Below are positions 1 through 17,974 of a DNA stretch of 64,000 bases, one piece after another; the stretch's first letter is position 1; every line of letters starts with the position of its first letter. The translations under genes and the position numbers were made by a program. The stretch comes from Alphaproteobacteria bacterium (GTDB taxonomy: Bacteria; Pseudomonadota; Alphaproteobacteria; Bin95), in assembly GCA_963665325.3 (NCBI GenBank), contig CAXXWS020000001.1, positions 1 to 64,000 of the forward strand, read 5' to 3'. The notes under the pieces were generated by a model. The model did no database searches, had not been told where the DNA came from, and worked only from the letters and a program-made list of their open reading frames with translations.

Positions 1-1
1 C

Positions 2-3000
2 GTGACGGCCATGAGCGCGTTCGCATGGCTGCGCCGGCGGGGCCGTCCGTCCTCACCGCCTGAGTCTCTTTCCTCCGCCCGCACGGCTGCGGGCATCCGC
101 CATGCCACCCGCCGCCTGCGGCACGGCCTGCGCCCCGTCCTTGCCTCCGCGCTGCTTGCCCTTCCCCTGCTCGCCGGCCTGCCGACCGGGGCGCAGGCCC
201 AGGTCGCGTGCAGCACGGCCAATGCCGACGGCTCCTATGACGTTCCCTTCGACTGGGCGCTGAAGCCCTCCGGTCTCGCCGCCGACAGCAAGTTCCGCCT
301 GCTGTTCGCCACCTCGACGGTGCGCACCGCCACGGCGACCGACATCGCGACCTACAACACGTACGTGCAGACCCGCGCCAAGGCGGGCCACAGCGCGATC
401 TCCGACAGCTGCGGCAACCTCTTCAAGGTGGTGGCCTCGACCTCCGCGGTCGATGCCCGCGTCAACACCGACACCGAATCGACCGACACGGCGGCGCTCA
501 TCTACTGGCTGAACGGCGCCAAGGTCGCCGACAGCTACACCGACTTCTACGATGGAAGCTGGGACAGCCGTGCGCACAAGAACGAATCGGGAGGGACCAC
601 CTCTTTTCTGGTCGTAGCTACAGGAAGCAACCAGGACGGCACAAAGAGCTCCACTCCACTTGGTGCACCGTCGGTCAATACAACCTCTCTGAGTTCCGGT
701 AGTCCAATTTCTGGCGCCGGTGCTAGTACAAACACGAACAATTTTCGCTTCCTCGCCCTCTCCCCGATCTTCACGGTAGGCACGAAGCCGGTGGTGAGCA
801 TTTCGGCGGGCACTTCGCCGGTGACGGAGGGCACGGCGGCGAGTTTCACCCTGAGCGTCACCCCGGCCCCGTCGGCGCCCCTGGCCGTCACTGTGATCGT
901 CACCGACACCGGCGACTTCGTCGATGCGGCCGACGAGGGTGTCAAGACGGTCACGATCCCGGCCGGCGCCGCCACGCACGCCTTCACCGTCGCCACGGAC
1001 AACGACACCACGGACGAGGCCAACGGTTTTGTGACTGTGTCTCTGATCTCCGACGCGGGCTACACGAAAGGCACTTCGGGAACCGCCACGGTCGCGGTAT
1101 CGGACGACGACGCCACGCTTGTGAGCCTTGTGGCGACGTCGGACGTGACCTTCACGGAGGAGACCCCGTCGGACACGGCGGCGGTGACGGTGCGCCTGGC
1201 GCGGCGGCTCTACGCGGGCGAGAAGCTGGCGGTGCCGTTCGAGGTCACGGGAAGAGGGATTGCACTCCATGAGCAAGTGAATCCGAGCTACACCCTGTCC
1301 GTTTCGGGCAACGGAGCGACTGGAACGCTACTGACAAGTGCCACCACCTATGTACGCTTCACCGGCCACGACACCGACATCGTGCAGGAGGCCACGGTCA
1401 CCCTGACGCCGACGAACAACGACGACGGCGACACGGAGCCCGGCTCCGTCACGATAGGCATTTTGGATCTCTTTAGCGGCGACTGGACCCAGAGCTTCAC
1501 CACCGTCGGCGGCGGCGGCGCGCCCGGCCCGGACACCTCGGTGAGGCTGGTCTATGCCGACAACGACGGGACGTTCGAGGACCTGATCCTGCGCGACCTC
1601 CCCGGGCCGCGGATCCACCTGGACGTTCAGGCCTCGCCGGATGTGACCGGGAGCGGGCGCGACTGGACCCTTGAGGAGGGGGCCGACATCACGCTGCGGA
1701 TCAGCAACCTCACGGAGACCCTGCACACCCAGGACCTTACGGTGAACTACAACGTGAAGGGCGCCTACGCCCATGTCCCCGACGGCCACGGGGGGACCCG
1801 GCCGGTGACGCTTCCGGCGAACACGCGCTCGGTCCAGGTGACCCTTCCGACCGAGGCCACCACCGACGACGAGACCGACGTGTCGCTGTCGGTGCGGCTC
1901 CTGGCCGCGGACGTGCCGGGGACCTACACGACCAACTTCCAGCCGCTGAACTTCACGGTCACGGACGGTTCGGACGGAGGCACGGGCGTCATCACCCCGT
2001 TCGTCACGGTCGAGCGGTGGTGGCCCGGGTTTGCCGATCCGCGCGACGAAGGGGAGCATCTCCCGTTCGTGATTCGTTCCAATCCGGCGGCGCAGGTGCC
2101 GTTCCCGGTCTGGCTGAAGGTCGAGGAGACCGCGGGCGATTGCGTCGCGGCCGGGCAGGAGCGGGTGCACACGGTCCGGTTCACGCCCGGGACCGAGCTG
2201 CGGGTCCTGCGCGTGCCGACGGTGGACGACGACGTGGACGAGCCGGACTGCGAGGTGCGGGTGTCGCTGGTCAAGGACACCGCCGGCACGGTGCCCACGG
2301 TGATTGATATTGCGCTGACCGGGGGCCGCGGCGGCTACATCATCAATCCGGAGGTCGTGTCCACCCCCTATATCGATGAGACCACTCCGGAAAACTCGGT
2401 CCCCGTGGGCCGGGGAAGGGGGACCGCGACCGGGACGGTCTTCGACAACGACCCCGGCTCGTTCGATCGCGGCGGGCAGATCGGGCATAGCGAGTCCGAT
2501 GCGGCGGTGGACCCGGCGCTGGTGGCGGAGGTCCGTGTCCGGGCGGCGGAGACCCATCACGGCCAGGCGCATGTGGACCGCTGGCGGCGCGTTCTGGTGG
2601 CGTTCGGAGTGGAGACTTACGAGGGTCTTTCGCCGACGACGGCGGCGGAGGCGGCGGCGAACGCGAAGAAGTACAGCAGCCCGCTCTGGCCCCGGATCGC
2701 CACGGCGCTGGCGGCGCTGGAGGCGGGACCCGTGGTCCCGGTCCGGCCGGTGGTGACGATCGCGGCGGATGCGGAGCGGGTCGGCGAGGGCGGCGCCGTG
2801 ACCTTCACGCTGACGGCGGCGCCGGCGCCGGTGCGGGACCTCGCGGTGCACGTGGTGGCCGACGAGGAGATGGGCGCGGGGGACGACCTTGTGGGCAGCG
2901 GGCATATCGCCACGGTGACGATCCCGGCGGGGGAGAGTTCGGCGACGTGGACGGTGACGGCGATGTCGGACGAGGTGGAGCGGGCCGACGGCACGATGAC

Positions 3001-5986
3001 GGGCCGGGTGGTGGCGGGCGACGGCTACGCGCCGGGCGATCCGTCCGAGGTGACGCTGGCGCTGCTCGACGACGACGAGGCGGCGCTCGAGGTCACGGTC
3101 TCGGGCGGCGACGCGGTGACCGAGGGCGGCGACGCGGTGTTCACCTTCACGGCGAGCCCGGCCCCTGCATCGGACCTTGCGGTGAGCGTGACCGTGGCGG
3201 TCGAGGGCGACTACGGGATCGAGGGCGGCAAGCGGACCGTCACCATCCCGGCGGCGGGCAGCGCCACGCTGACGCTGGCGACGGCCAATGACGACGTTGA
3301 CGAGGCGGACGGCTCGATCACCCTGACGGTGGAGGACGGCGACGGCTACGCGGCGGGCGACCCGGCGTCGGGGACGGTCGCGGTGCGCGACGACGACGTG
3401 CCGGCGGTGAGCGTCGCGGCCGGGGATGCGGTGACCGAGGGCGGCGACGCGGCGTTCACGCTGACCGCGAGCCCGGCCCCGGCGGCGCCGCTGACCGTGA
3501 CGGTGACCGTGGCGGCCGCCGGCGACTACGGCGTGAGCGCGGGCACGCGGACGGTGACCGTCCCGATAACGGGCAGCGCCACGCTGACGCTGGCGACGGC
3601 GAACGACAAGGCGGACGAGGCCGACGGCTCGGTCACCCTGACGGTGGATGCGGGCAGCGGCTACACGGTGGGCGCGCCCGGCTCGGGCACGGTCGCGGTG
3701 CATGACGACGACGAGCCGGCGGTGAGCGTCGCGGCCGGGGATGCGGTGACCGAGGGCGGCGACGCGGTGTTCACCTTCACGGCGGATCCCGCCCCGGCAT
3801 CGGACCTGACCGTGACGGTAACGGTGGCGGCCGAGGGCGAGTACGGCGTGACCGCGGGCGAGCGGACCGTCACCGTCCCGGTGACGGGCAGCGCGGAGCT
3901 GACGCTGGCGACGACAAACGACGAGGCGGACGAGCCGGACGGCTCGGTCACCCTGACGGTGGATGCGGGCGACGGCTACACGGTGGGCGACCCGGCGTCG
4001 GGGACGGTCGCGGTGCGCGACGACGACGAGCCGCTGCCGCTGGTGATCTCGGTGGCCGACGCGACGGTGACGGAGGGCGACGGCGCCTCGCTGATGTGGT
4101 TCACGGTGCGCCTGTCGGAGCCTTCGGCGGAGACGGTGACGGCGCGGGCGGACACGCGCCCCTCGACCCCGGTATCGGCGAAGCCGCGGGAGGACTACTG
4201 GCCGGTGCGGTCCGGGCTGGTTCGGTTCAGGCCGGGCGAGACCGAGTGGCGCGTGGCGGTCTACATCGCCGACGACAATCACGACGAGGACGCGGAGACG
4301 TTCGAGCTGGTGCTGTCGGCCGCCGACGGCGCGCGGATCGGCGACGGGGTTGCGGTTGGGACGATCGTGAACGACGACCCGATGCCGGCGGCGTGGCTGG
4401 CGCGGTTCGGGCGCACGGTTGCGGAGCAGGCGCTCGACGGGATCGCGGGCCGGATGGCGGCGCCGCGCACGCCGGGCATGCAGGGCGCGATCGCCGGTCA
4501 GGCGCTCTCGTTCGGCGCACCCGCCAACGACAATGCGGCTGCGGGCCATGTTGCGGCCGGGTCCTCGACACTCGGCGTGACCGGGTCTCCGGCGCTGGCC
4601 GATGTCGCGCAGGCGTTCGGCGGGCACTCCGACCGATTCGGCGCGGGCGATTCCGGTCATGACGCGGCCGGCTTCGGTGCCGGCCCCGGCTCGTTGTCCG
4701 GGGCGGGCTTCTCGCAATCGCGGACCATGACGGCCCGCGACGCGCTGCTGGGCAGCAGTTTCTCGCTGACCGGCGCGGCGGACGGCTCGGGCGGCAGCAT
4801 GGCGTTCTGGGGCCGGGCGGCGCAGGGCGGCTTCGACGGCCGCGAGGGGACGTTCTCGCTCGACGGCACGGTCACCACCGGCATGTTGGGCGCGGACTAT
4901 GCGCGCGGCAAGTGGCTGGTGGGGCTGGCGCTTGCGCAGAGCGCGGGCGAGGGCGACTACCGCGATACCGATGCCGATCCCCGTCCCGACAGCCAGACCT
5001 GTCCCGCGATTGACGGACAGGAGATGCCGGAGTGGTGCAACGAGGCCGTGCGCGCGGGCGACGGCAGTGTGGAGGCGTCGCTGACGGCGGCGATCCCCTA
5101 TGCGGCGTTGCAGGCGTCGGAGCGCCTCAAGCTCTGGGGCGCGGCGGGTTACGGCACGGGCGAAGTGACGCTCAAGACCGCGCTCGGCGGCAGCTACAAG
5201 TCCGACACCACCTGGAGCATGGCGGCGGCGGGGCTCAGGGGCGACCTGCTGGCGCCCCCCGCTGAGGGCAGCGGTCCCGCCCTGGCGGTGACCTCGGACG
5301 CGCTGTGGACGCGGAGCTCGTCGGAGAAGACCCGCGACCTCGCGGCGTCGGAGTCCGACGCGACCCGGCTCAGGCTCGGGCTGGAGGGCAGCTACCGCAT
5401 GGCGCTGGAGGGCGGCGGTCATCTGACGCCGAAGCTGGAGGTCGGCGCGCGCCATGACGGCGGCGACGCGGAGACCGGCTTCGGGGTCGAGCTCGGCGGC
5501 GGCATCGCCTGGGTCGATCCGGGCCTCGGGCTGTCGCTCGACGTCTCGGGCCGCACGCTGATCGCGCACGGCAACGACGACCTGAAGGACCGGGGCTATG
5601 CGGCGTCGCTCGCTTTCGATCCGGACCCGGCGACGCGGCGGGGTCCGTCGCTGAGCCTGCGCCAGGAGTTCGGCGGGCAGGCCAATGGCGGACTGGATGC
5701 GCTGTTCCAGCCGGCGACGCTGGAGGACCGCACGGGCGGCGAGGCGACGAGCCGCTGGGCGATGGAGGCGGCCTACGGCTTCCCGGCCTTCGGCGGGCGC
5801 TGGACCGGCAGCCCGCATGTCGGATTGGGGCTGGCGGCGGCTGCGCGCGACTACAGCGTCGGCTGGCGGCTCGCGCCGGAGACCAACGCGCCCGACCTCT
5901 CCTTCGGGGTGAAGGCGAGTCGTCGGGAGACCGATACGGACGCGCCGGAGCATACGGTCGGGTTCGAGGTCCGCGCCCGCTGGTGA
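2..5986 (+). CDS. Large surface adhesin/autotransporter: signal peptide, N-terminal lectin-like module, Calx-beta/Ig-like repeats, C-terminal beta-barrel
   Basis: 1994-aa ORF with signal-like LLALPLLAGLPTGAQA. Repeated VTEGxxAxFT...DDD Calx-beta-like units. C-terminal barrel motifs (LRLGLEGS, RHDGGDAETGFG) and terminal W. The true start may be ATG at 11. Confidence 0.85.
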   Translation: MTAMSAFAWLRRRGRPSSPPESLSSARTAAGIRHATRRLRHGLRPVLASALLALPLLAGLPTGAQAQVACSTANADGSYDVPFDWALKPSGLAADSKFRLLFATSTVRTATATDIATYNTYVQTRAKAGHSAISDSCGNLFKVVASTSAVDARVNTDTESTDTAALIYWLNGAKVADSYTDFYDGSWDSRAHKNESGGTTSFLVVATGSNQDGTKSSTPLGAPSVNTTSLSSGSPISGAGASTNTNNFRFLALSPIFTVGTKPVVSISAGTSPVTEGTAASFTLSVTPAPSAPLAVTVIVTDTGDFVDAADEGVKTVTIPAGAATHAFTVATDNDTTDEANGFVTVSLISDAGYTKGTSGTATVAVSDDDATLVSLVATSDVTFTEETPSDTAAVTVRLARRLYAGEKLAVPFEVTGRGIALHEQVNPSYTLSVSGNGATGTLLTSATTYVRFTGHDTDIVQEATVTLTPTNNDDGDTEPGSVTIGILDLFSGDWTQSFTTVGGGGAPGPDTSVRLVYADNDGTFEDLILRDLPGPRIHLDVQASPDVTGSGRDWTLEEGADITLRISNLTETLHTQDLTVNYNVKGAYAHVPDGHGGTRPVTLPANTRSVQVTLPTEATTDDETDVSLSVRLLAADVPGTYTTNFQPLNFTVTDGSDGGTGVITPFVTVERWWPGFADPRDEGEHLPFVIRSNPAAQVPFPVWLKVEETAGDCVAAGQERVHTVRFTPGTELRVLRVPTVDDDVDEPDCEVRVSLVKDTAGTVPTVIDIALTGGRGGYIINPEVVSTPYIDETTPENSVPVGRGRGTATGTVFDNDPGSFDRGGQIGHSESDAAVDPALVAEVRVRAAETHHGQAHVDRWRRVLVAFGVETYEGLSPTTAAEAAANAKKYSSPLWPRIATALAALEAGPVVPVRPVVTIAADAERVGEGGAVTFTLTAAPAPVRDLAVHVVADEEMGAGDDLVGSGHIATVTIPAGESSATWTVTAMSDEVERADGTMTGRVVAGDGYAPGDPSEVTLALLDDDEAALEVTVSGGDAVTEGGDAVFTFTASPAPASDLAVSVTVAVEGDYGIEGGKRTVTIPAAGSATLTLATANDDVDEADGSITLTVEDGDGYAAGDPASGTVAVRDDDVPAVSVAAGDAVTEGGDAAFTLTASPAPAAPLTVTVTVAAAGDYGVSAGTRTVTVPITGSATLTLATANDKADEADGSVTLTVDAGSGYTVGAPGSGTVAVHDDDEPAVSVAAGDAVTEGGDAVFTFTADPAPASDLTVTVTVAAEGEYGVTAGERTVTVPVTGSAELTLATTNDEADEPDGSVTLTVDAGDGYTVGDPASGTVAVRDDDEPLPLVISVADATVTEGDGASLMWFTVRLSEPSAETVTARADTRPSTPVSAKPREDYWPVRSGLVRFRPGETEWRVAVYIADDNHDEDAETFELVLSAADGARIGDGVAVGTIVNDDPMPAAWLARFGRTVAEQALDGIAGRMAAPRTPGMQGAIAGQALSFGAPANDNAAAGHVAAGSSTLGVTGSPALADVAQAFGGHSDRFGAGDSGHDAAGFGAGPGSLSGAGFSQSRTMTARDALLGSSFSLTGAADGSGGSMAFWGRAAQGGFDGREGTFSLDGTVTTGMLGADYARGKWLVGLALAQSAGEGDYRDTDADPRPDSQTCPAIDGQEMPEWCNEAVRAGDGSVEASLTAAIPYAALQASERLKLWGAAGYGTGEVTLKTALGGSYKSDTTWSMAAAGLRGDLLAPPAEGSGPALAVTSDALWTRSSSEKTRDLAASESDATRLRLGLEGSYRMALEGGGHLTPKLEVGARHDGGDAETGFGVELGGGIAWVDPGLGLSLDVSGRTLIAHGNDDLKDRGYAASLAFDPDPATRRGPSLSLRQEFGGQANGGLDALFQPATLEDRTGGEATSRWAMEAAYGFPAFGGRWTGSPHVGLGLAAAARDYSVGWRLAPETNAPDLSFGVKASRRETDTDAPEHTVGFEVRARW
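3092..4030 (+). repeat. Three tandem ~315-bp (105-aa) intragenic repeats
   Basis: GA(C/T)GCGGTGACCGAGGGCGGCGACGCG recurs at 3110, 3425 and 3740. Boundaries are approximate. Confidence 0.9.
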
Positions 5987-6564
5987 GCGCGGCGCGCGCG
6001 TTGACCATGGCGGGATCCGGCCGGAAGCTGCCCGAGGACGGCGGGGTGTGGGCGTGGCAGGTGCTGCGGGACCGGGAGGACTACCGCGAGGCGTGGGCGG
6101 CCCGTGCGGGTTGTGCCGCCGCGCCCGATCTCGAGCCGGCGCCCTTTCCGGTCCGCGTCCAGTCGGCGGCCGATCTCGATGCGGCGCGCTGGGGCCTGCT
6201 CGCCTGGGAGGACCCGGAGGCGGTGGACGGGCCGGGCTCCGCGTTCTGGTCGGACGCTCCGATGCTGGTCTGCGCGCTCGGCGAGGGCGAGCCGGCGCTT
6301 GTCGACCTGCTCGAGGAGGCCGGGTCCACGGTGAGCGGGCTGCGGCTCGCGGGCGGGGCGCTGATCCTGAAGATCGAGCGCGGTCCCGATGCGGTGCAGC
6401 TGCGGCTGGCCGATGCGGCGGCGTTCCCCGGGGGCGGCGGCATCGAGCTGCGGCACGGCATTGCAGGTCTGCCGGCGACGGCGGCGCGGGAGCTGGAGCT
6501 GTGGGCGCTTGCCGGCGAGGCGGCTCCCCCTCCCGGGGGCGATATCGGGGGGCGGGGCACGTGA
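5983..6564 (+). CDS. FseA-like conjugation activator, N-terminal/middle part (DUF6499-like)
   Basis: WAWQVLRDREDYREAW and WGLLAWEDP motifs resemble DUF6499/FseA. Lies upstream of an rdfS-like gene. Alternative ATG start at 6007. Confidence 0.65.
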   Translation: MSAARALTMAGSGRKLPEDGGVWAWQVLRDREDYREAWAARAGCAAAPDLEPAPFPVRVQSAADLDAARWGLLAWEDPEAVDGPGSAFWSDAPMLVCALGEGEPALVDLLEEAGSTVSGLRLAGGALILKIERGPDAVQLRLADAAAFPGGGGIELRHGIAGLPATAARELELWALAGEAAPPPGGDIGGRGT

Positions 6565-8029: not shown

Positions 8030-8322
8030 TGAACGACACCGCGCGCCACACCATCCCGCGCCGTCTCGACGACCCGGAGCGCTGGCTGTTCTGGACCGTC
8101 GACGAGGCGGCGGCGCTGATGGGCCCGGCGCTCCTCGGGCTTGCCGCCAACCAGTTCGTGCCGGGGCTGGTGGCCGGCGTCGGCGGCTGGCTGCTGCTCA
8201 GGCGCGTGAAGCGCGGCGGCGGGGCCAACATCGCGCGCTACGCGCTCTACTGGTTCCTGCCGGACTTCGTGCTGCGTCTTGAACGCACGCCGCCGAGCCA
8301 TCTGCGGCGCTTCGCCGGCTGA
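8029..8322 (+). CDS. traL: F-type T4SS TraL
   Basis: IPRRLDDPER.LFWTVDE and LYWFLP motifs. Confidence 0.92.
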   Translation: MNDTARHTIPRRLDDPERWLFWTVDEAAALMGPALLGLAANQFVPGLVAGVGGWLLLRRVKRGGGANIARYALYWFLPDFVLRLERTPPSHLRRFAG

Positions 8323-8344
8323 GGCGCGGAGCGGGGACGGGGCC

Positions 8345-8917
8345 ATGAACCGCGCTTTCATGGAGACCGGCATCCGGCGCGCCCGCGATATCCGGGTGGC
8401 GCTGGCCGGGCTGCTGGCGCTGTCGATGACCGCGAACCTGGCGCTGACCGTGGGCTTCGCCGGGCGCGAGACGGCGACCGTGCTGGTGCCGGCGGCGGCG
8501 GGGCCTTCCTGGGCGGTGGGCGGCGGCGGCGCCGGCGAGGGCCGCGCCGGCGCGCGCTATCTGGAGGACATGGCGCGCACGGTGGCGGTGACGCTGCTGA
8601 CGCTGACGCCGGAGAACGCGGCCCATGTCCGCCTTGCGGCGGCGCGCCTGGCGCACCCGTCCGCGCGCGGCGCCATCGGCGCCTGGGTCGAGGCCGAGGC
8701 CGCGCGCATGGCCGGGCGCGACCTCGCGAGCGCGTTCTATCCCGACAGTATCGAGGCCGACCCGGCGCGGCTCGGCGTCGAGGTCGCGGGCGAGCTGGTG
8801 ACCTGGATCGGGCGCGAGGAGGCCTCGCGCGAGGACCGGCGCTACCGGCTCGCGTTCCGCATCGACGCCGGGCGCATCGGCCTGTTGCGCTTCGAACAGA
8901 TGGAGACCGGAAAATGA
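8345..8917 (+). CDS. traE: F-type T4SS TraE
   Basis: N-terminal TM segment, TVLVP, YLEDMA, LTLTPEN; expected position. Confidence 0.88.
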   Translation: MNRAFMETGIRRARDIRVALAGLLALSMTANLALTVGFAGRETATVLVPAAAGPSWAVGGGGAGEGRAGARYLEDMARTVAVTLLTLTPENAAHVRLAAARLAHPSARGAIGAWVEAEAARMAGRDLASAFYPDSIEADPARLGVEVAGELVTWIGREEASREDRRYRLAFRIDAGRIGLLRFEQMETGK

Positions 8918-9714
8918 CATTCATCGACCGATTGCGGCCGCTTGCGGTCCTGATTGCGATACCCCTTCTTTGCATGGGCGGGCTCGCGGCGTCCGCCCCG
9001 GCGGCGGCGATGCAGATCCTGGAGGCGGCCGACCACGCCGAGCTCGCCGCCGAAATCTCCGCGAGGGAGGTCAGCCGGATCGCGCTTGCACGCGACCGGA
9101 TCGCGCGGGTGGTGCGCTCGCCGGACGGCTTCGCGGCCGAGCACGACGCCGCCTCGGGCGACCTCTATCTCAGGCCCGCGGACGCGGCGAACCCGGCCGC
9201 GGCCCACGCCCCGGTCACGCTGTTCATCGGCACCGAGCGGGGCTTCACCTACCGGCTGACGCTGACGCCGGCCGAGCGGGGATCGGCGCAGATCCTGATC
9301 CGCAACCCCGGGGCCATGCCGGGCGCGGCGGAGGGCGTCGATGGCGCCGGCCCGGCATTGGCGGGCGATCCGCGGATCGCGGCGCTGGTCCGCCTGGTCC
9401 GCGCGGTGGCGCGGCGCGAGCCGCTGCCGGGGTATGCCATCCATGCCGGGGCCATCCATGCCGGGACCATGCCGGCCGGGCTCAGGCTCATCGAGACCTG
9501 GCGGGGTCCGCGTTACCGGGCGCTGGTGCTGGAAACGGGGCGCCTCCCCTCCGCCGGCACGCCGGATGCGGCGGGCCTCGCCGGGACCATCGGAGCGCTT
9601 GCGGGCGCCGGGCGCGTCGCGGCGCTGTGGCTGGCGGCGCCGGGCACCGGCCCCTCCGGCGGGCGGCTCGCGGTGGCGGTGACGGAAGGCGCCGCGACCG
9701 GAGAGCCGCGATGA
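8914..9714 (+). CDS. traK: F-type T4SS TraK
   Basis: Signal peptide, SRIAL..DRI, GDLYLRP, LFIGTERGFTY. Confidence 0.88.
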   Translation: MTFIDRLRPLAVLIAIPLLCMGGLAASAPAAAMQILEAADHAELAAEISAREVSRIALARDRIARVVRSPDGFAAEHDAASGDLYLRPADAANPAAAHAPVTLFIGTERGFTYRLTLTPAERGSAQILIRNPGAMPGAAEGVDGAGPALAGDPRIAALVRLVRAVARREPLPGYAIHAGAIHAGTMPAGLRLIETWRGPRYRALVLETGRLPSAGTPDAAGLAGTIGALAGAGRVAALWLAAPGTGPSGGRLAVAVTEGAATGEPR

Positions 9715-11048
9715 ACGCGCAACGGGATGCCCGGGACGGCGCCGATCCCGGGACGGTGCGCCGGCGCCAGCTGCTGCTGTTCTCGGGCGTCGCGGCGCTC
9801 GTGCTGGTCGCGGTGGCGGCGTGGCTCGGCATGGGCGGCGGCAAGGCCCCGGCGCCGCGCAGCGGCATCGAGGCCGGGATCGCCGGACCGGACACGGCCG
9901 AGAAGGTGTGGACGCGGCGCTCCGAGGCCCGGCTCGGCGGGATCGAGACCAAGCTGCGCGAGATGGAGCGGGAAGCCCGCTGGCTCGCCGCCGACAACGA
10001 CCGGCTGCGCGCGAAGCTGGAGACCGGCGCCGCCGATGCGCGCACCGTCATCGACCGCCAGGCGGCGATGATCGGCGAGCTGGAACGCCGCCTTCAGCCG
10101 CCCGGGCAGACGGGCAATGGCCCGGGCAATGCGCCGGGTGGAGACGGGTATTTCCGGGTGCCGGCGACGGCGCCCTCGACCGGCGGCCACGGACAGACGC
10201 AGCCCGTCGCGCCCCCGGCTCGGGGGCCGGGGCAGGCGGCGCGCATGATCGAGACCTTCGAGCTGACGGACAGCCCGCGGTCCTCGGCGCACGATCCCCG
10301 GAACGGGGTCCGGGGCAGGCCCCGCAGCGGCCCGGAACTGGTCGCCGATGCGGTGGCGAAGCCGGTCTCGGCCTGGCTGCCGGCGGGCGCGCATGCCGAG
10401 GCCGTGGTACTCGCGGGCGTCGACGCCTCGGCCGGCATCTCCTCGCAGGGCGATCCCCGCCCGGTGCTGATGCGCATCACGGGTCCCGCCTGGACGGCGG
10501 CCGAGGATGGCATGGCCATGCAGGTCGACATCGACGGCTGCACCGTCACGGGCGCGGCCCATGGCGACCTTTCGTCCGAGAAGGTCTACGTCCGTTTCCG
10601 CACCATGACCTGTGCCGGGCCGCGGCCGGGCACGGTGGTCGAGACGCCGGTGGCGGGGTTCGTCGCGGGCTCGGGCAAGACCGGGGTGCGCGGCCCGGTG
10701 GTGAGCCGCGAGGGGGCGCTGGTCGAGAAGGCCTTCCTCGCCGGCACGATCTCCGGCGTCGGCCAGGGCGTGGCCCAGGCGTTCCAGCCGCAGGCGGTGG
10801 CGGCCGGCGGGGGCGCCGCGGTCGCCAACACCGCGCTCGGCGACATCGGCCGCGCCGGTCTCGGCGCCGGGGCGTCGTCGGCCGGGCAGAAGGTCGCCGA
10901 CTACATGATCCGGCGCGCCGAGCAGTACCAGCCGGTGATCCAGCTCCAGGCCGGCACGAAGGTGACGCTGGTGTTCCTCGAAGGCGCGCGCATCGACGGG
11001 CGCGCCGTGCAACCCCGACAGACGCAAACCTCCCGGGGAGGGAAATGA
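9711..11048 (+). CDS. traB: F-type T4SS TraB (VirB10-like)
   Basis: TM plus coiled coil, GVDASAG, GDLSSEKVYVR, GVRGPVVSREG, RAEQYQPVI. Confidence 0.92.
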   Translation: MNAQRDARDGADPGTVRRRQLLLFSGVAALVLVAVAAWLGMGGGKAPAPRSGIEAGIAGPDTAEKVWTRRSEARLGGIETKLREMEREARWLAADNDRLRAKLETGAADARTVIDRQAAMIGELERRLQPPGQTGNGPGNAPGGDGYFRVPATAPSTGGHGQTQPVAPPARGPGQAARMIETFELTDSPRSSAHDPRNGVRGRPRSGPELVADAVAKPVSAWLPAGAHAEAVVLAGVDASAGISSQGDPRPVLMRITGPAWTAAEDGMAMQVDIDGCTVTGAAHGDLSSEKVYVRFRTMTCAGPRPGTVVETPVAGFVAGSGKTGVRGPVVSREGALVEKAFLAGTISGVGQGVAQAFQPQAVAAGGGAAVANTALGDIGRAGLGAGASSAGQKVADYMIRRAEQYQPVIQLQAGTKVTLVFLEGARIDGRAVQPRQTQTSRGGK

Positions 11049-11049
11049 C

Positions 11050-11730
11050 ATGACGCACGAAACGAACCACGCGCGGCATCGGTCGGCAATCCCGGCCGTC
11101 GCGCTCGCGGCCCTGCTGCTGGCGGGCTGCTCGTCGGGGCATGTCGGCGAGGACTGGCAGTGCCCGCTGGCCGCGGGCGGCGCCTGCGCCAGCGTCGCCG
11201 CGGCCGATCCGGCAGTGCCGGACCCGGGCAAGGCCGGAAACGCGGCCCTCGCGGAGCCGCTCTACCGGGTGCGGGATGGCGTCGGCAGAGCCGGCGCGCC
11301 GCCGCCGGCGCCCTGCGCGGCGGAATGCGGCGCGGGGCTCGATCCCCTTGGCTGGCTCGCCCGCTTGTTCGGAGCGGAGGATGGCGGCGGCGCGCGCAGC
11401 GGCCAAGAGCCTGGCACGGTCGCGCGGACGGGTGCCGGGGACTCCCCGAACCCGGGCGTCTCCGGACCGGGCGACGTGCAGCCCGGACCGGGCGCATCGG
11501 CATCGTCCCCGGCTCCCGGCCCCTCGAAGCCGGGGACCGAGGAAACGTCGGCTGGGTCGCAACGGGTCGAAACCGCGTCGACCGGTCACGATGCGGGCGG
11601 CGACGATCTCCGCAGCGGCGAAGTCGTCGCGCGCGTCTGGATCGCGCCCTTCGTCGATGCCGACGGCGTCTATCGCGAGGCGTCCCATGTCCGGGTGGTG
11701 CTGGAGCCGGCCGGCTGGAGGTTGAAGTGA
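11050..11730 (+). CDS. traV: F-type T4SS lipoprotein TraV
   Basis: Lipobox LAGC, WQC...G.C, C-terminal RVWIAPFVDADG. Long low-complexity linker. Confidence 0.88.
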   Translation: MTHETNHARHRSAIPAVALAALLLAGCSSGHVGEDWQCPLAAGGACASVAAADPAVPDPGKAGNAALAEPLYRVRDGVGRAGAPPPAPCAAECGAGLDPLGWLARLFGAEDGGGARSGQEPGTVARTGAGDSPNPGVSGPGDVQPGPGASASSPAPGPSKPGTEETSAGSQRVETASTGHDAGGDDLRSGEVVARVWIAPFVDADGVYREASHVRVVLEPAGWRLK

Positions 11731-14276
11731 GCCCGCCCGCCGCCGGGCCCGGACGCCTGCTGGAGCTGTTCGAGGGGCCGGAGGCGCCCGGCCCGTGGAC
11801 GCCGCCGGCGATGCCGGCGGCGCTGCACGCGCTGCTGCCCTGGCGCGCCTTCGACGAGGCGAGCGAACTCCATGTCAACGCCGCCAGCACCGGCTTCGTG
11901 CTGGAGCTGCCGCCCTTCGCCGGCATCGACGCCGAGACCCTGGGCGCGCTCTCGGGCACGCTCGCCGACGCCGCGCCCGAGCGCTGCACGGTCCAGATCG
12001 TCCACTGGGCGAGCCCGCGCTTCGGCGCGGCAAGCCGGGCCTGGGCGGAGCCGCGCGGCGACGCCGGGGGCGCGCTCGCCAGGATGGGTTCGCGCCGCCG
12101 CGACCTGCTCGCCCCGGGCGGCTGGCGGCGGCTGCATGAAGGAGGGCCGCCCTTCACCCTCTCGGACTACCGGGTGTTCGTCACCGCCTGCCTGGCGGGC
12201 GGTCCCGGCCCGGCCGCGGAGACCGCGCTCGGCGCCTTTCGCCGCGCACTCGAAGGTACGCTGGCCTCCGCAGGCGCGCAGACCCGCCGGCTGGACCCGG
12301 ACGCGCTGCTCTCGCTCGCGGCCGAGTTGGTCGTGCCCGATGTGCATGGCGAGCGCGACGGCGGGACCGAGCGCCCGGCGCGGCGCTGGTCGCCGCGTGA
12401 CCCGCTGCACGAGCAATGCATCGCCCCCGGCCGCGCGCTCACCGTGACGCCGACCGGCCTCACCTTCCATCATCCGGACGGAGAAGACATTGCCGTCCGG
12501 GTGCTGTCGGCGATCGCCTTCCCCGAGGTCTGGCCGGGCTGGCGCGGCAATGCGCTGATCGGCGACTTCCACCGCGACTTCCTCCAGCCCGGCTGCCCGG
12601 TGCTGACCTGCCTCACCGTGATGACCGGCGACGAGGCGGCGGGCGAGAAGGCGTTCCTGAAGTCCGCGCGGGCCACCCAGCAGGCCGGCACCGGCATCGC
12701 GAGATACCTGCCCGGCCTGCCCGAGAAGGCGCGCGACTGGCAGGCGGTCACCGAGCGGCTCAAGGACGGCGAGCGGCTGGTCCGCGCCTGCTACATGGCG
12801 GCGGTCTATGCCCCGCTGGACGCGCTCGACGAGGCCGAGCAGGCGGTGCGGGCGATCTATCACGGCCAGGGCTGGCGGGTGAACGCCGAGCGCTACATGC
12901 AGCTGCCGTCATGGCTCGCCTGCCTGCCCATGGCCTCGGCCGGCGGCCTCGACGCCGATCTCGAACGCATGGGCCGGATGAAGACGCTGCTGACCGCCTC
13001 GGCGGTCAATCTGGCGCCGATCCACGGCGAATGGCGCGGCCAGCCGATGAATCCCGACAATCCGCCCGCCCTCTTTCTCATAGGCCGGCGCGGCCAGCCG
13101 GCCTGCTGGTCGCCCTTCGCCAACGAGGCCGGCAACTACAACGTGGCGGTCACGGGCAAGTCGGGCTCGGGCAAGTCGGTGCTGATGCAGGAACTGGTGA
13201 CCGGGCTCATCGGCGCCGGCGGCGAGGCCGTGGTGATCGACGACGGACGCTCCTTCCAGCACACGGCGGAGGCCCTGGGCGGCGCCTTCATCGCCTTCGG
13301 CAAGGACCCGGCCTGCCTCAACCCCTTCGCCATGATCGATGCCGGAACCGCCAACCATGACGGCGACTACCGCGAGGAGTGCTTCGCCATGCTCGCGGGC
13401 GTCATCGGGCGCATGGCAAGGCGCCGGGGCGGGATCGACGACATCGAGGCGGCGCTTATTGCCGAAGCGATTGCGTCGGCCTGGGACGAGGCCGGCAACG
13501 AAGCCGATCTCGGCACGGTGCGCCAGAAGCTCGAAGCCCGCGACGACCGCCGGGCGAAGGACATGGCGACCGCGCTCGGCCCCTGGTGTCCGGGCGGCGC
13601 CATGGGGCGGCTGTTCGCGGGCTCGAACGTCCCCGACCTTGAGAACGCCATGACGGTGTTCGAGCTCGCCGAACTCAAGGGGCGCGGCGACGTCCAGGCC
13701 GTCGTGCTGATGCTGGTGGTCTTCCTTGCCACCCAGCGCATGTATCACGGCCCGCGCACGCGGGCGAAGGCGATCGTCATCGACGAGGCCTGGGACCTGC
13801 TTTCGGGCGAGGACAGCCGCGCCTTCCTGGAAGGCGCCGCCCGCCGCGCCAGAAAATACCGCGGCGCGCTGGTCACCGGCACGCAGAGCGTCAACGACTA
13901 CTACGCCAACCCCGCTGCCCGTGCCGCGTGGGAGAACTCGGACTGGGTGATCTTCCTCGCCCAGAAGGACGAGTCGGTCGAGCTGCTGAAATCCGAGAAG
14001 CGCATCCACTGCGATCCGGGCATGGAGCGGGCCTTGAAGAGCCTGACCACCGCCGACGGGCGCTATGCCGAGCTGGTGCTGCACGGCCCCGACGGCTGGC
14101 GGGTCGCACGCCTGGTGCTGGATGCCTGGTCGGTCGCGCTGTTCTCCTCGCGCGGCCCCGCCTTCGCCGCGGTCGAGACGCTGAAGGCCGAGGGGCTCTC
14201 CACCGTCCAGGCCATCGACCGGCTCGCGGGCGACGGACACTCCGAAACCGCCGAACCGAAGGGAGGAAACGAATGA
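11727..14276 (+). CDS. traC: F-type T4SS ATPase TraC (VirB4-like)
   Basis: Walker A GKSGSGKS, IDEAW, RRARKY. GTG start overlaps the traV stop. Confidence 0.95.
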   Translation: MSPPAAGPGRLLELFEGPEAPGPWTPPAMPAALHALLPWRAFDEASELHVNAASTGFVLELPPFAGIDAETLGALSGTLADAAPERCTVQIVHWASPRFGAASRAWAEPRGDAGGALARMGSRRRDLLAPGGWRRLHEGGPPFTLSDYRVFVTACLAGGPGPAAETALGAFRRALEGTLASAGAQTRRLDPDALLSLAAELVVPDVHGERDGGTERPARRWSPRDPLHEQCIAPGRALTVTPTGLTFHHPDGEDIAVRVLSAIAFPEVWPGWRGNALIGDFHRDFLQPGCPVLTCLTVMTGDEAAGEKAFLKSARATQQAGTGIARYLPGLPEKARDWQAVTERLKDGERLVRACYMAAVYAPLDALDEAEQAVRAIYHGQGWRVNAERYMQLPSWLACLPMASAGGLDADLERMGRMKTLLTASAVNLAPIHGEWRGQPMNPDNPPALFLIGRRGQPACWSPFANEAGNYNVAVTGKSGSGKSVLMQELVTGLIGAGGEAVVIDDGRSFQHTAEALGGAFIAFGKDPACLNPFAMIDAGTANHDGDYREECFAMLAGVIGRMARRRGGIDDIEAALIAEAIASAWDEAGNEADLGTVRQKLEARDDRRAKDMATALGPWCPGGAMGRLFAGSNVPDLENAMTVFELAELKGRGDVQAVVLMLVVFLATQRMYHGPRTRAKAIVIDEAWDLLSGEDSRAFLEGAARRARKYRGALVTGTQSVNDYYANPAARAAWENSDWVIFLAQKDESVELLKSEKRIHCDPGMERALKSLTTADGRYAELVLHGPDGWRVARLVLDAWSVALFSSRGPAFAAVETLKAEGLSTVQAIDRLAGDGHSETAEPKGGNE

Positions 14277-14914
14277 CGGCAAGAACCGCAAATGCCGATG
14301 CTGAACGCCCGCTCAACTGGCCGGGCGACCCGGAGAATGTCACCGCCGTCGATATCGACTTCAGCGCGCTGGCGCATGTTCTCGCCAATACCTGCCGCCG
14401 GGGCGGCTGCTGCCGGCAGTACCACTCGATCGCCGCCCATGCGGTGATCGTCTCGGAGGAGATCGAGGCGCTCGACGGTCTCGCGGACGAAGACCGGCGG
14501 GTACTGGCGCTGTATGCGCTGCTTGCGGACGCGCCGTCGGCCTGGCTCCGGGGCCGCCTGCCCGATTCGCAGCGGGCAGCAGAGCGTGCCGGAAGGCTGG
14601 CCACGGGGATCGAGGCCGCAGTGCGCGAGGCCGCCGGGCTCGGTGCGGTGCTGGACGAGGAACATGGCGAGCTTCTGCGATTCGTGACCCGCATGGCGGC
14701 CGCCGCCGAGCGCCGCGACGTTATGGACGGGAATGCCGCCGCGGGCGCCGGCGTGGCCTTCCCGCCGCTGAAGCGGCGCATCCGCGGCATGGCCCCCGAC
14801 AGGGCGGCGGAGGCCTGGCTCGCCCGCTTCCGGGCGCTGGCGGGAGACAGGGCTTCGGCTCCGCGCGTTGGCGGCGCTCCGGCGGAGGACAGTGCGGATG
14901 CGCCGGCGTCCTGA
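14273..14914 (+). CDS. YfdR-like HD-superfamily protein with degenerate HD motif
   Basis: LAHVLANTCR.GG...YHSIAAHAVIVS...ALYALLADA resembles YfdR/YfbR-type hydrolases, but HD reads AD. Confidence 0.65.
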   Translation: MTARTANADAERPLNWPGDPENVTAVDIDFSALAHVLANTCRRGGCCRQYHSIAAHAVIVSEEIEALDGLADEDRRVLALYALLADAPSAWLRGRLPDSQRAAERAGRLATGIEAAVREAAGLGAVLDEEHGELLRFVTRMAAAAERRDVMDGNAAAGAGVAFPPLKRRIRGMAPDRAAEAWLARFRALAGDRASAPRVGGAPAEDSADAPAS

Positions 14915-15308
14915 AGCTGACGGGCGGTCCGATCCGGCCTGGCCGGCGATGGTGTCCGCGGTGCTGCTCTCGGGCGCGGTGGCGGCGGCGGTCGCGGCGG
15001 CAACGCTGCGCTACGGGATCGAATCGCCGCCGGGCATCGCCGGCGTCCGGCTTGCGCAGATGACTGCGGCCTGGACGACGCGGGCGGCAGCCGAAGGCCG
15101 GTCGGCGGCGGAGGTGCGCGCCTGGGGCGCGGCGCTGGAGACCGCGCTGGACCGGGTGGCGCACGATCACGGCGTGGTGCTGCTGCCGGCCCGGGCGGTC
15201 GCCGCCGGGGCGCCGGACCTGACGCCGCAGGTCGAGGCGGCGCTCGCCGAAACCCTTGCGCGGAAGCCGGGCGGGGAAGCCGGCGCCCCGCGGGGAGCGG
15301 TCCGGTGA
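14898..15308 (+). CDS. trbI: F-type TrbI
   Basis: TM segment, VVLLPARAVAAGAPDLT; position before the peptidase and traW. Confidence 0.78.
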   Translation: MRRRPEADGRSDPAWPAMVSAVLLSGAVAAAVAAATLRYGIESPPGIAGVRLAQMTAAWTTRAAAEGRSAAEVRAWGAALETALDRVAHDHGVVLLPARAVAAGAPDLTPQVEAALAETLARKPGGEAGAPRGAVR

Positions 15309-15892
15309 GCGCGCCGCGCCCGATATTCAACCTGCGGGCGGACAGGCAGCGCCGCCGCCATGTAGGCCTGGTGGTCATGATCGCCCTGGCGGCACTCTGG
15401 ATCGGCCTCGCCTCGCGCGTGCATGTCAACGCCAGCTGGTCGGACGAAGCCTGGGGCTATGCCGCCCTGCCGCTGTTCGGCGAAGACCCGGAGATCGGCG
15501 ACCGGGTGCTGTTCGATCCTCCCGAAGCGCTGGAATCCCGGGTTCCGTATCTGAAGACCGTGCGCGGCGTGCCGGGCATGGCGGTCGCGGTCGCGGAAGA
15601 CGGGACGGTCAGTCTCGACGGCGTCGCGGTCGGCCGCGCAAAGACCAATGCCCTCGACGGGCGCCCGCTCGCGGCGGTCGCGCCGGGGATCGTTCCGCCC
15701 GGATATTACTTCCTTCACGCCGACCATCGCGACAGTCACGACAGCCGCTACGCCGAAATCGGCCTGGTGCCGCGTTCGCGCATTCTCGGCCGCGCGATTG
15801 CCCTGCCGAACCTGCCCTGGCTCGGCCTCAAGGGGCCGCTGGTCGGGCCGGAAGATGTCCGGCCGGACCCGAAACCGGAGGCGTGGCGATGA
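15305..15892 (+). CDS. trhF: S26 family conjugative signal peptidase (TrhF-like)
   Basis: NASWS (Ser), YLKTVRGVPG (Lys), SHDSRY..IG. Confidence 0.85.
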   Translation: MSAPRPIFNLRADRQRRRHVGLVVMIALAALWIGLASRVHVNASWSDEAWGYAALPLFGEDPEIGDRVLFDPPEALESRVPYLKTVRGVPGMAVAVAEDGTVSLDGVAVGRAKTNALDGRPLAAVAPGIVPPGYYFLHADHRDSHDSRYAEIGLVPRSRILGRAIALPNLPWLGLKGPLVGPEDVRPDPKPEAWR

Positions 15893-16596
15893 GACGGTCG
15901 GCAACCCTGTTGCTTGCTGCCCTGCTCGCGGCGCCGGCACCAGGCGCATCGGCGAAGGACCTGGGCGTGCGCGGCGCGACCTGGCCGGTGGCGGAGCCCG
16001 ACCTGCTGCTCGAAATAGAGACGCGGCTCCTGAAGATGCAGCGCTCGGGCGAGCTGGCGCGGCTGGAGGACGAGGCCCGCACCCGCGCCCGCCGGAAGCT
16101 GGAGACGCCGGACCCGGTTCCCGGTATCGCGCCGGCGCGGGAGCAACGCAGCCGCCTGTTCGATTCCTCGATCGCGGTCGCGCAGGACATCCGCACGCCG
16201 GACGGCACTCTCATCGCCGCCGCCGGCACGAGGGTCAACCCGCTGGAGCGCTTGCCGCTGACGCGCGACCTGATCTTCGTCGACGGCAGGCGCGAGGCGG
16301 AGATCGCCTGGGCGCTCGGCCATGACCGGCCCGCGAAGATCGTGCTGCTCGCCGGGCGCCCGCTCGACCTGATGCGCCGCCATCGTCGGCCCTTCTTCTT
16401 CGATACCGGCGGCAGGCTCGCCGCGCGCTTCGGTATCGCCGCGACGCCCACGCTGGTCCAACAGGATGGCGTTCGACTGCGCCTTACCGAAATCCCGGTT
16501 GTGGGTCGGGCGGGGCCGCAGTCCGGCCAATGCGATGGCGATACGCAACCCACCGAATCATTGAAACCGACAGCGAGGGGAGAAAAGCCATGCTGA
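15889..16596 (+). CDS. traW: F-type T4SS TraW
   Basis: DLGVRGATWPVAEPDLL, GTRVNPL, FFFDTGG. Confidence 0.92.
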   Translation: MRRSATLLLAALLAAPAPGASAKDLGVRGATWPVAEPDLLLEIETRLLKMQRSGELARLEDEARTRARRKLETPDPVPGIAPAREQRSRLFDSSIAVAQDIRTPDGTLIAAAGTRVNPLERLPLTRDLIFVDGRREAEIAWALGHDRPAKIVLLAGRPLDLMRRHRRPFFFDTGGRLAARFGIAATPTLVQQDGVRLRLTEIPVVGRAGPQSGQCDGDTQPTESLKPTARGEKPC

Positions 16597-16976
16597 CCGT
16601 GAACCGCGCGACCCTGGTGGGCCATGCCGGGCGCGACCCCGAGATCCGTTCCCTGCCGAACGGCGGCAGGGCGGCGACCTTCCCGCTCGCCACCGCCGAA
16701 AAATGGACCGACCGGGAGGGCAAGCCCGTGGAGGCCACCGACTGGCATCGCATCGTGGTCTACGGCGCGGCCGTCGAGATCGTCGGGACCATGCTGCGCA
16801 GGGGCGATCCGGTCATGGTCGAGGGCCGCATCGTTACCCGGCAATATCAGGATCGCGAGGGTGCCGACCGCACCGTCACCGAAATCGTCGTCGCCGGGCC
16901 CCAGGGCATGGTCAACATCCTCAGCCCGAGGAAGGCGGAGCATGGCGACGCCGCGGCAACCGGGTCCATCGCATGA
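16590..16976 (+). CDS. ssb: Single-stranded DNA-binding protein
   Basis: VNRATLVGHAGRDPEIR, TDWHRIVVYG, VEGRIVTRQY. Confidence 0.92.
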   Translation: MLTVNRATLVGHAGRDPEIRSLPNGGRAATFPLATAEKWTDREGKPVEATDWHRIVVYGAAVEIVGTMLRRGDPVMVEGRIVTRQYQDREGADRTVTEIVVAGPQGMVNILSPRKAEHGDAAATGSIA

Positions 16977-17974
16977 TCCGCCGCTTCCTCGCCGTCTGCG
17001 CGGTCGTGCTGGCGTCCGCCCTGTGGGCCGGCCCGGCCTCGGCGCAGAGCTGCACCGGCCGGTTCGTGAACCCGATCTCGGACGTCTGCTGGGAATGCCT
17101 GTTCCCGATCTCGATCGGCCCGCTCACCATCGGCAGCACCGGCGGCGTCACGGATACGCCGAACCCGTCCTCGCCGATCTGCTTCTGCGGCTCCCCCATC
17201 CCCCGCATCGGCCTCTCGCTCGGGGTGTGGGAGCCGGCACGGCTGGTCGATGTCACCAGAACCCCCTGGTGCTTCCCCAATCTGGGCGGCCTCACCATCG
17301 ATCCCGGCCTGCCCGCCGCGCGGGGCCGCACCGGGTCGTCGGGCGGCGACGGGGCGAAGGGCTCGGTCTGGCATGCGCACTATTACATGTATCCGCTCTT
17401 GTCCTGGATCGGCGTGCTGCTCGATCTCGGCTGCCTGGAAGGCGGAAGCCTCGACATCGCCTGGGTCTCGGAACTCGACCCGGCCTGGCTCGACGACGAG
17501 CTGTCGTTCCTGCTCAACCCGGAGGCGGCGCTGTTCGCCAACCTGCCGGCGCAGGCGGCCTGCGCCGCCGACTGCGCGGCGGCCTCGGTCGGCCTGCCGC
17601 AGGACGGTCTGTTCTGGTGCGCGGGCTGCCAGGGCGGGATGTATCCGCTGACCGGCAACGTGGCGGCCCATGTGGGCGGCGTGCAGGCCTCGCTGCTGGC
17701 GGCCCAGCGCCTGGTCTACCGCCTGCACCGCGCCGGCCTCGCCTGGGGCACCTCGGGCTCGGCCGCGCTCTGCGGTCGCTACCCGATGCCGGTGATGAAG
17801 AAGTCGCAGTACCGCTGGCAGATGACCGAGCCGGTGCCGGCGACCACGCCCGCGACCGGCTGCAACCCGACCGGACGCTCCTCGGTGCTCTGGGAATCGC
17901 TCCGCGAGCTGCCGGTCTCCGGCGAGAGCTTCGGCTACCTGCTGTGGAGAAAACGATCGTGCTGTCTTTTGTGA
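16973..17974 (+). CDS. traU: F-type T4SS TraU
   Basis: FVNPISDVCWECLFPISIG, WEPAR, SELDP, WCAGCQG, LWRKRSCC. Confidence 0.95.
   Translation: MIRRFLAVCAVVLASALWAGPASAQSCTGRFVNPISDVCWECLFPISIGPLTIGSTGGVTDTPNPSSPICFCGSPIPRIGLSLGVWEPARLVDVTRTPWCFPNLGGLTIDPGLPAARGRTGSSGGDGAKGSVWHAHYYMYPLLSWIGVLLDLGCLEGGSLDIAWVSELDPAWLDDELSFLLNPEAALFANLPAQAACAADCAAASVGLPQDGLFWCAGCQGGMYPLTGNVAAHVGGVQASLLAAQRLVYRLHRAGLAWGTSGSAALCGRYPMPVMKKSQYRWQMTEPVPATTPATGCNPTGRSSVLWESLRELPVSGESFGYLLWRKRSCCLL

Follow-up and report, generated by a model that had tools for sequence, protein, structure and literature searches.

A hypervariable patch of AT-shifted codons in an endostatin-fold domain of a microbial surface protein family

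Introduction

Why should some 65 codons in the interior of a folded domain depart so strongly from the codon usage of the gene around them? This question is raised by the first gene of a 64,000-nucleotide stretch (hereafter the window) of GenBank assembly GCA_963665325.3, an alphaproteobacterial genome of 5.58 Mb, five contigs and 67% GC. The window begins with the first base of contig C2, and the gene (11..5986, forward strand) is an open reading frame (ORF) of 1991 codons encoding an autotransporter-type surface protein of 1991 residues, a putative adhesin. Within its N-terminal domain, a conserved core (251..550, forward strand), in which 0.97 of the third codon positions are G or C (GC3), is followed by a patch (551..745, forward strand) with a GC3 of only 0.51. 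A preliminary description of this DNA had tentatively attributed the patch to targeted hypermutation or to cassette exchange. Here we describe the composition, fold, variation and family context of the patch, and we propose that it encodes the hypervariable part of what is presumably a binding domain, diversified without a diversity-generating retroelement (DGR). The genome is referred to below as G000, the gene 11..5986 as its copy on contig C2, and the other copies of the domain by their contigs (C1, C5 and so on).

Results

Composition of the patch

Thirty-two of the 65 codons in 551-745 end in A or T, as opposed to 3 of 100 in 251-550; both numbers had been counted by hand in the preliminary description and were reproduced exactly. 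Outside the patch, 169 of the remaining 1926 codons of the gene have such endings. The binomial tail for at least 32 of 65 is 2.9e-17, and Fisher's test of the patch vs 251-550 gives p = 7e-13. When GC3 was followed along the gene, a check that had been suggested at the outset, the A/T-richest run of 65 codons was found to begin exactly at nucleotide 551, and the best run of this length without patch overlap contains 16 A/T endings. GC at codon positions 1, 2 and 3 is 0.46, 0.65 and 0.51 in the patch vs 0.52, 0.53 and 0.97 in the core, and GC at fourfold sites is 0.45 vs 0.98. Since GC at the first two positions is held unchanged and fourfold sites drop so far, the signal lies in synonymous codon choice; a frame artefact and an effect of amino-acid composition were rejected on the same grounds. 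Of the sharp bounds that had been claimed for the patch, the 3′ border near 745 is indeed sharp, but the 5′ border is graded, with GC3 values of 0.70, 0.47 and 0.35 in successive groups of 20 codons before 0.85 is reached.

Dips of this kind are rare in the genome. When long ORFs with a GC3 of at least 0.8 were scanned for an internal stretch of 50 codons at or below 0.6, bounded by 60-codon flanks that are both at or above 0.85, 14 of 2003 were retained, with 11..5986 and its paralogue C1 ranking second and third. The mean GC3 of the gene is 0.90 and that of the conserved flanks of the patch 0.97, and the intergenic-like DNA of the genome has a GC content of 0.64, above both the GC3 (0.51) and the fourfold-site GC (0.45) of the patch, which thus looks nearer to mutational equilibrium than anything else nearby. 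An assembly chimera was considered and rejected, as short-read contigs of three public runs, possibly including the sample of origin, bridge both patch borders, extending from 511, 518 and 523 to 775 with 0 differences. A scan of positions 1-2400, which include the patch, yielded no sigma-70-like promoter or terminator-like site, and no direct or inverted repeat within 1-6000 involves 551-745.

An endostatin-fold domain with a variable C-terminal third

The domain that harbours the patch had been described as lectin-like, a reading that the structural work upholds and makes more specific. An AlphaFold2 model of 203 residues, built from an alignment of 40 sequences, reached a pLDDT of 92.7 and a pTM of 0.90, and places an endostatin fold at 251..775 (forward strand; model residues 21-195). 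Collagens XVIII and XV supply all five of the best Foldseek matches in the Protein Data Bank (PDB), in each case with their endostatin domain (E 2e-6 to 5.5e-5, TM 0.60-0.72). VIA-align superimposes 150-163 residues on five endostatin chains with Z-scores of 15.4-16.4 and root-mean-square deviations of 2.5-3.0 Å, the next fold being that of C-type lectins, with Z not exceeding 4.9. Sequence identity in the endostatin alignments is 14-18%. The nearest ESM-Atlas clusters, which we take as leads only, are labelled DUF1554 or Endostatin and score 0.82-0.84. At the sequence level, neither positions 200-790 nor the C1 paralogue matched any Pfam model at E of 10 or below, including PF06482 and PF07588, the N-terminal 200 residues after the leader matched no NCBIfam model at E of 1 or below, and a sequence-profile search of the PDB with the domain returned no endostatin and no relevant structure.

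The patch corresponds to model residues 121-185, the C-terminal third of the domain. It is predicted to be folded, with four short strands and pLDDT values of 82-98, rather than to form a disordered linker. We consider that it encodes the hypervariable part of a domain whose role would be binding.

The dip recurs across paralogues and homologues

Searches with tblastn and blastn found six copies of the domain in G000, five of them in long ORFs and the sixth, on C4, in a domain-only gene of 217 residues. Three of the five long ORFs have a common leader preceded by a repeat array (see below), and the leader of C2 stands at the contig start. Over the aligned stretch from the DGSW motif to the F-x-x-LSP motif, GC3 is 0.49-0.63 in the patches of the five large paralogues and 0.92-0.98 in their cores; the corresponding values of the short gene are 0.78 and 0.85. 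The core is 82-95% identical in nucleotide sequence among paralogues. When 451-850 was used as query, the nucleotide match to three large paralogues and to the domain-only gene ended at the patch border (query 1-118), and that to the fourth large paralogue, C1, covered the whole query.

The family to which these copies belong is large. A profile search of 1.84 billion representatives returned 6415 proteins, counted as clusters at 50% identity, at E of 1e-3 or below, 4795 at 1e-10 or below and 1700 at 1e-30 or below; the domain may occur at any position in a protein and in up to 14 copies. Among relatives in contigs of one genome per species, the best 80 of 221 were examined, nearly all of them from metagenome-assembled genomes (MAGs). 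Their labels include Alpha- and Gammaproteobacteria, Acidimicrobiia, Dehalococcoidia, a Prochlorococcaceae cyanobacterium, Thermodesulfobacteriota, Nitrospira, Nitrosopumilus, Candidatus Poriferihabitaceae and Poriferisodalis. A sponge association of the carriers is suggested by the sponge-derived names of a number of the records and by the label of two small-share 'sponge metagenome' runs; a literature search on endostatin in sponge symbionts gave unrelated papers only. Core protein identity between phyla is 60-75%, and identity at core synonymous sites exceeds the expectation from composition (0.70 vs 0.47 between this gene and the cyanobacterial copy). Since the cores of different phyla are alike even at synonymous sites, gene transfer must have carried the domain between them, and the loci cannot count as independent samples.

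Core GC3 is higher than patch GC3 in 75 of 79 homologous loci, with a mean difference of 0.18 that exceeds 0.15 in 44 loci and 0.3 in 16, and across these loci GC3 recovers in the 60 codons after the patch. The dip is also seen in low-GC hosts, where core, patch and downstream values are 0.62, 0.34 and 0.67 in a Nitrosopumilus locus (L075), 0.67, 0.47 and 0.59 in L079, and 0.73, 0.47 and 0.69 in L047. The larger the excess of patch over core divergence, measured against the closest relative, the larger the dip (Spearman 0.45, p 3e-5, n = 79 related loci). In three subfamilies with a conserved patch (G009, L058, L061 and L074; L089, L092 and L094; L048 and L053) the core-patch difference is only -0.08 to 0.04.

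The dip is not confined to the sites that vary. GC3 in columns that are invariant throughout the family is 0.78 for the patch vs 0.87 for the core; in the most variable ones it is 0.62, 0.83 and 0.82 for patch, core and downstream sequence; and the columns of 11..5986 that are invariant among ten close alleles have 0.50 in the patch vs 0.94 elsewhere. As invariant patch columns are also low in GC3, the dip is regional and does not arise site by site.

These comparisons bear on the idea that A/T-ending rare codons are themselves selected, since they would slow translation or loosen mRNA structure in favour of, for instance, export or folding. The position of the dip within the domain is conserved across the family, and at some invariant residues the paralogues agree in an A/T-ending codon (the glycine of DGSW is one, with GGA), as this idea would have it. 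However, the subfamilies with a conserved patch possess the same domain, to which the requirement should equally apply, and show no dip. A link to the signal peptide is unlikely for a domain found anywhere in a protein and in as many as 14 copies, and autotransporters are exported before they fold. We therefore regard selection for rare codons as quite improbable.

How the patch changes

The most variable block (647..745, forward strand; residues 213-245) is replaced between near-identical orthologues. The orthologue P0056 differs from the protein studied here in 52 of 1991 columns, of which 11 fall in residues 212-241 where 1.7 are expected (p 8e-7), making this the densest cluster of differences. 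Core identity of the two proteins is 0.98; within the patch it is 1.00 over the first half and 0.70 over the second, and downstream it is 0.93-0.99. Over the second half of the patch, P0056 resembles P0066, P0072 and P0076 (identity 0.88), although these proteins are less closely related to it elsewhere, and four proteins whose passenger regions differ have in common a 'type A' block with an identity of 0.97. To judge from these alignments, the mosaic alleles fit an exchange of short blocks of about 33 codons. Thus, of what the preliminary description had proposed, a variable region with block exchange finds partial support here, and targeted hypermutation does not (see below).

At the DNA level, C2 and C1 differ in the patch by 0.36 substitutions per synonymous site (dS) and 0.30 per nonsynonymous site (dN), between flanks with dS of 0.06-0.07, and their patch differences are distributed over codon positions 1, 2 and 3 as 20, 16 and 14. 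The dN/dS ratio of the patch (NG86) is 0.8-3.8 in four unsaturated pairs. The highest value belongs to C5 and its same-genus orthologue G011_c, with a patch dN of 0.199 and dS of 0.052 (ratio 3.8) and flank values of 0.019/0.011 and 0.021/0.021. When the substitutions of this pair were polarised with L032 as third sequence, the lineage of G011_c was found to have undergone 28 substitutions in 69 patch codons (11, 13 and 4 at the three positions) vs 5 in 183 flank codons, and the lineages of C5 and L032 3 patch substitutions each. The patch of L032 has even evolved more slowly than its own flanks (3 of 207 nucleotides vs 25 of 549). The burst in G011_c is not AT-biased (6 GC to AT vs 13 AT to GC changes), and the base replaced was A in 12 of the 28 cases and G, T and C in 6, 5 and 5.

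We would like to point out three side observations on these loci. L032, labelled as a Pseudomonadales MAG, shares with C5:40982-41593 a protein identity of 95% in the core and 94% in the patch, although C5 belongs to a genome with alphaproteobacterial-labelled relatives and the patch of G011_c is far more diverged from C5 than that of L032; this points to a recent inter-class transfer, or to a problem of binning or labelling. In G011, the adhesin heads at C2:379526-380113 and C3:234630-235217 are identical over the 280 codons compared, which indicates that they were duplicated very recently, when the burst was already over. Finally, in four metagenome runs (X1-X4) summed contig depth is 779-4868 over 481-560 and 8-65 over 641-720, and up to 44 contigs cover position 534, many with unlike continuations after about 564-568; the depth peak in the core and these continuations together mean that dozens of family members in the sampled communities share the core and part at the patch border.

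Could the patch have been imported, once in the distant past or repeatedly, from lower-GC donors through the conserved flanks, without having yet been adjusted to its host? The spread of the family by transfer, with cores 60-75% identical between phyla and unsaturated at synonymous sites, would provide the opportunity, as would the F-type conjugation genes that adjoin the gene, and both the block replacement in P0056 and the raised dS of the C2/C1 patch between little-diverged flanks would fit import. However, even in hosts of low GC content the patch is richer in AT than its own flanks, which counts against import since donors drawn from a common pool ought now and then to exceed the host in GC, and patch GC3 is not constant but moves with host GC3. 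Moreover, among 200 locus pairs with a core identity of at least 0.8, patch identity exceeds core identity in only 20, by small margins except in L087/L099, and among 4278 locus pairs there was no clear case of a patch moved onto a foreign core, with L087/L099 as a possible one (core 0.89, patch 0.987). Import from low-GC donors is, in our opinion, unlikely, and a single ancient recombination, which the preliminary description had named among the outcomes that would refute its reading, does not account for a dip that recurs across the family.

Search for diversification machinery

Targeted hypermutation predicts a machine, be it DGR-like, otherwise enzyme-driven, or an AT-biased mutagenic process such as deamination. 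Several features invite this idea. The variable stretch is predicted to lie, as in DGR targets, at the C-terminal end of a C-type-lectin-like fold, between the conserved DGSW and F-x-x-LSP motifs; the burst in one lineage raises substitutions locally 15-fold and includes 7 codons changed at two bases; and third positions show an excess in it (4 in 69 patch codons vs 1 in 183 flank codons).

No DGR-type reverse transcriptase was found in G000, which is 100% complete by marker genes. Its only RVT_1 match is a truncated ORF of the group-II-intron type (L009, C1:449537-452968), whose 317 residues stop before the YADD motif; it adjoins a tyrosine-integrase-like ORF, an octanucleotide array and a truncated leader ORF. 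Five other carrier genomes were searched, and RVT_1 matches were present in three of them and absent from two, both with large dips. Those of G011 and G064 are of the group-II type, with (Y/F)ADD and maturase motifs, and G061 has matches in ORFs of 520 and 97 residues; no DGR-type enzyme was found in these five genomes, the type of the G061 matches not having been read. Template copies are likewise lacking: the patch of C2 (at E of 10 or below) and that of G011_c (at E of 1 or below) match only paralogous genes in their own genomes, so that a sequence search for the template copy that the preliminary description had envisaged ended in paralogues. Nor does G000 contain a bank of silent partial cassettes, tblastn and blastn having found the six copies only.

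The pattern of change also disagrees with such a machine. Differences are not confined to adenines, either in the G011_c burst, where 12 of 28 changes started from A and changes towards GC outnumber those towards AT, or between C2 and C1; paralogue patches differ at all codon positions and by insertions and deletions, so that one template could not serve them. The sister lineages of the burst are in stasis, with the L032 patch slower than its flanks, A/T-ending patch codons are conserved between orthologues of two species, and the patch letters are identical in contigs of three runs. We conclude that the patch is diversified without a DGR, a form of machine that is largely refuted here, and that targeted hypermutation is not supported; a dedicated machine of any kind appears very improbable.

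Gene, protein and genomic setting

The gene starts with a conserved leader (11..205, forward strand) whose translation suggests a long signal-peptide-like N-terminus (MSAFAWLRR...LLAGLPTGAQA), the hydrophobic stretch of which ends in AQA. The middle part of the protein contains LapA and Calx-beta domains (Calx-beta match of 44 bits). As in autotransporters of type Va, it ends in a C-terminal outer-membrane beta-barrel: the NCBIfam model TIGR01414 matches the last 544 residues with 28.5 bits (cut-off 16, E 7.7e-7), best at 4784..4972 (forward strand), which corresponds to residues 145-207 of the piece encoded by 4352-5983. Unlike NCBIfam, Pfam gave no match to this 544-residue piece. Two weaker GC3 dips follow the domain. 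The first (1031..1090, forward strand; GC3 0.75, and 0.63 in C1) is a block diverging between paralogues, and the second (1232..1351, forward strand; 0.60-0.70) coincides with a diverged allelic block of the same length at 1243-1333; runs X1-X3 show the corresponding joint from 1242 to 1334 as of the same length but diverged.

In G000 the octanucleotide GCCGG(A/G)TC forms seven tandem arrays, each of between 9 and 37 units (C1:452791-453046, C1:576871-576982, C3:1001721-1002000, C3:1020481-1020776, C4:41795-41898 and, on the reverse strand, C5:41827-42097; positions 1-10 of the window are also listed). Each is followed, within about 30 nucleotides or less, by an ORF with a common leader (M-x-x-x-AWLRR...RPSSPPE...), and the leader of 11..205 thus recurs after every array of the genome. 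The ORFs concerned are three endostatin-domain paralogues, two other giant surface proteins and one truncated ORF. Contig C2 itself begins 10 nucleotides before the common leader, at the expected end of an array. We regard array and leader as a candidate module for phase variation by slipped-strand mispairing.

Directly downstream of the adhesin gene lies an F-type conjugative transfer cluster (window 8279-25125) with TraE, TrbI-like, TraC, TrbI_Ftype, TraU, TraN, TraH and TraG_N genes, and contig C2 (196 kb) looks like a conjugative plasmid or chromid. Further on, window 33169-62803 is a block of lower GC (0.60-0.65) that encodes a GntR regulator, glutamine-synthetase-like, GATase, GXGXG and glutamate-synthase-like proteins, an ammonium transporter, sarcosine-oxidase-like and GCV_T proteins, a glycine-betaine-type ABC transporter and an FMO-like monooxygenase, a set which we take to resemble methylated-amine catabolism.

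Discussion

A proposed origin of the AT shift

The patch is probably shaped by diversifying selection together with segmental recombination, and we infer that the AT shift is a by-product of a weakened GC-restoring force. According to this proposal, the first approximately 100 codons of the domain would be held almost constant and the last approximately 65 diversified by two routes, namely episodic bursts of mostly amino-acid-changing point substitutions under diversifying selection, and homologous recombination through the conserved flanks, by which alleles and paralogues exchange short blocks. Patch alleles would be too divergent to form repaired heteroduplex, local sweeps would recur, and the force favouring GC, whether GC-biased gene conversion, codon selection or both, would be weakened there. 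Bacterial mutation is AT-biased, and synonymous sites of the patch could then drift to the AT-biased mutational equilibrium with no need for a mutator, while the conserved flanks, recombining freely, would stay at a GC3 of 0.97. One study (PMC4450053) argues that recombination and GC content are linked in bacteria and proposes a GC-favouring force. A weakened force of this kind would explain why the dip is regional, why it goes with hypervariability, and why it occurs in hosts whatever their GC content but not where the patch is conserved; moreover, a patch GC3 below the 0.64 of intergenic-like DNA is expected if non-coding DNA, too, is pushed towards GC.

A number of observations weigh against this proposal. 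A simple rule that divergent means low GC3 had to be rejected along 11..5986, where the correlation between divergence and GC3 over 73 windows of the gene is 0.09 and not significant, windows as divergent between C2 and C1 as the patch retain a GC3 of 0.85-1.0, and outside the patch GC3 drops merely from 0.936 to 0.842 with rising variability. The allele mosaic is a protein-level observation. The burst in G011_c could be a recombination import instead of substitutions in situ, and third positions contribute 4 of its 28 changes, a proportion not clearly unlike the 14 of 50 between C2 and C1. The identity of patch letters in three runs is one of contigs, which are blind to rare variants within a population. 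As the family loci are related by transfer, part of the dip could be inherited instead of maintained, and the role of gene conversion bias and of the local recombination rate is one that we infer.

A related possibility, which we consider doubtful though worth stating, is that cassette exchange is built into the domain without any reverse transcriptase, the conserved flanks acting as portable homology arms for an AT-shifted block of about 100-200 bp. Near-invariant peptides with near-deterministic codons would then produce almost the same flank DNA across paralogues, plasmids and phyla, the swapped block would comprise the binding loops of an endostatin mimic, and the members of a host-associated community, apparently of sponges, would share and rearrange their host-binding specificities. 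If this were true, the AT shift would mark DNA that never enters mismatch-repaired heteroduplex and would allow GC-biased gene conversion to be assayed, in bacteria and archaea alike, by a contrast that nature provides inside a single gene.

Under selection with segmental recombination, too, the locus is of wider interest. A passage of GC3 from 0.97 to 0.51 and back to 0.9 within about 600 bp, repeated family-wide, is an unusually clean natural contrast, and it bears on the long-standing question whether biased gene conversion, codon selection or mutation is behind GC-rich third positions. The family is very large, has no Pfam or NCBIfam model, and carries its endostatin fold on giant surface proteins of many phyla, which makes it a candidate mimic of host matrix or host receptors.

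Comparison with known systems

The variable regions of DGR targets with a C-type-lectin fold, such as Mtd of a Bordetella phage and TvpA of Treponema, resemble the patch in being hypervariable stretches of about 40-65 codons, C-terminal in a C-type-lectin-like fold, with conserved frame and in a surface or binding protein. Differently from these targets, the patch has no reverse transcriptase and no template repeat, its changes are not adenine-specific and reach third positions, and the patches of paralogues are unrelated. Scans for DGRs should thus take into account that DGR-like anatomy can arise without a DGR.

The endostatin domains of collagens XVIII and XV and the bacterial DUF1554 (PF07588) match the fold over the whole domain. 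The present family differs from them in having no sequence match in Pfam, NCBIfam or the PDB, in being bacterial or archaeal with a hypervariable C-terminal third, and in its location, either at the tip of an adhesin or as a tandem series of up to 14 copies.

Surface variation based on recombination is known from pilE/pilS of Neisseria, vlsE of Borrelia and msp2 of Anaplasma. Conserved flanks round a variable block, mosaic alleles and several paralogues per genome are common to these systems and to the family described here, which however has no silent partial cassettes, and in which blocks seem to have been exchanged among strains and species in the course of evolution, not by a programme that runs inside a single clone.

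High-GC bacteria, too, have highly divergent loci at which diversifying selection goes together with unusual codon usage, as exemplified by the pyoverdine region, pilA and the O-antigen genes of Pseudomonas aeruginosa; a literature search on codon usage at divergent pyoverdine-type loci found nothing on this point. In both cases low GC3 is found, within a GC-rich genome, where the alleles of a surface or receptor function diverge to an extreme degree. In contrast to the P. aeruginosa loci, the phenomenon is here compressed into about 200 bp inside one domain, with a GC3 of 0.97 immediately upstream, and recurs in a family across phyla. The patch may therefore be viewed as a hypervariable face, presumably a binding face, that is kept diverse by selection and recombination and that bears an unusually sharp compositional footprint.

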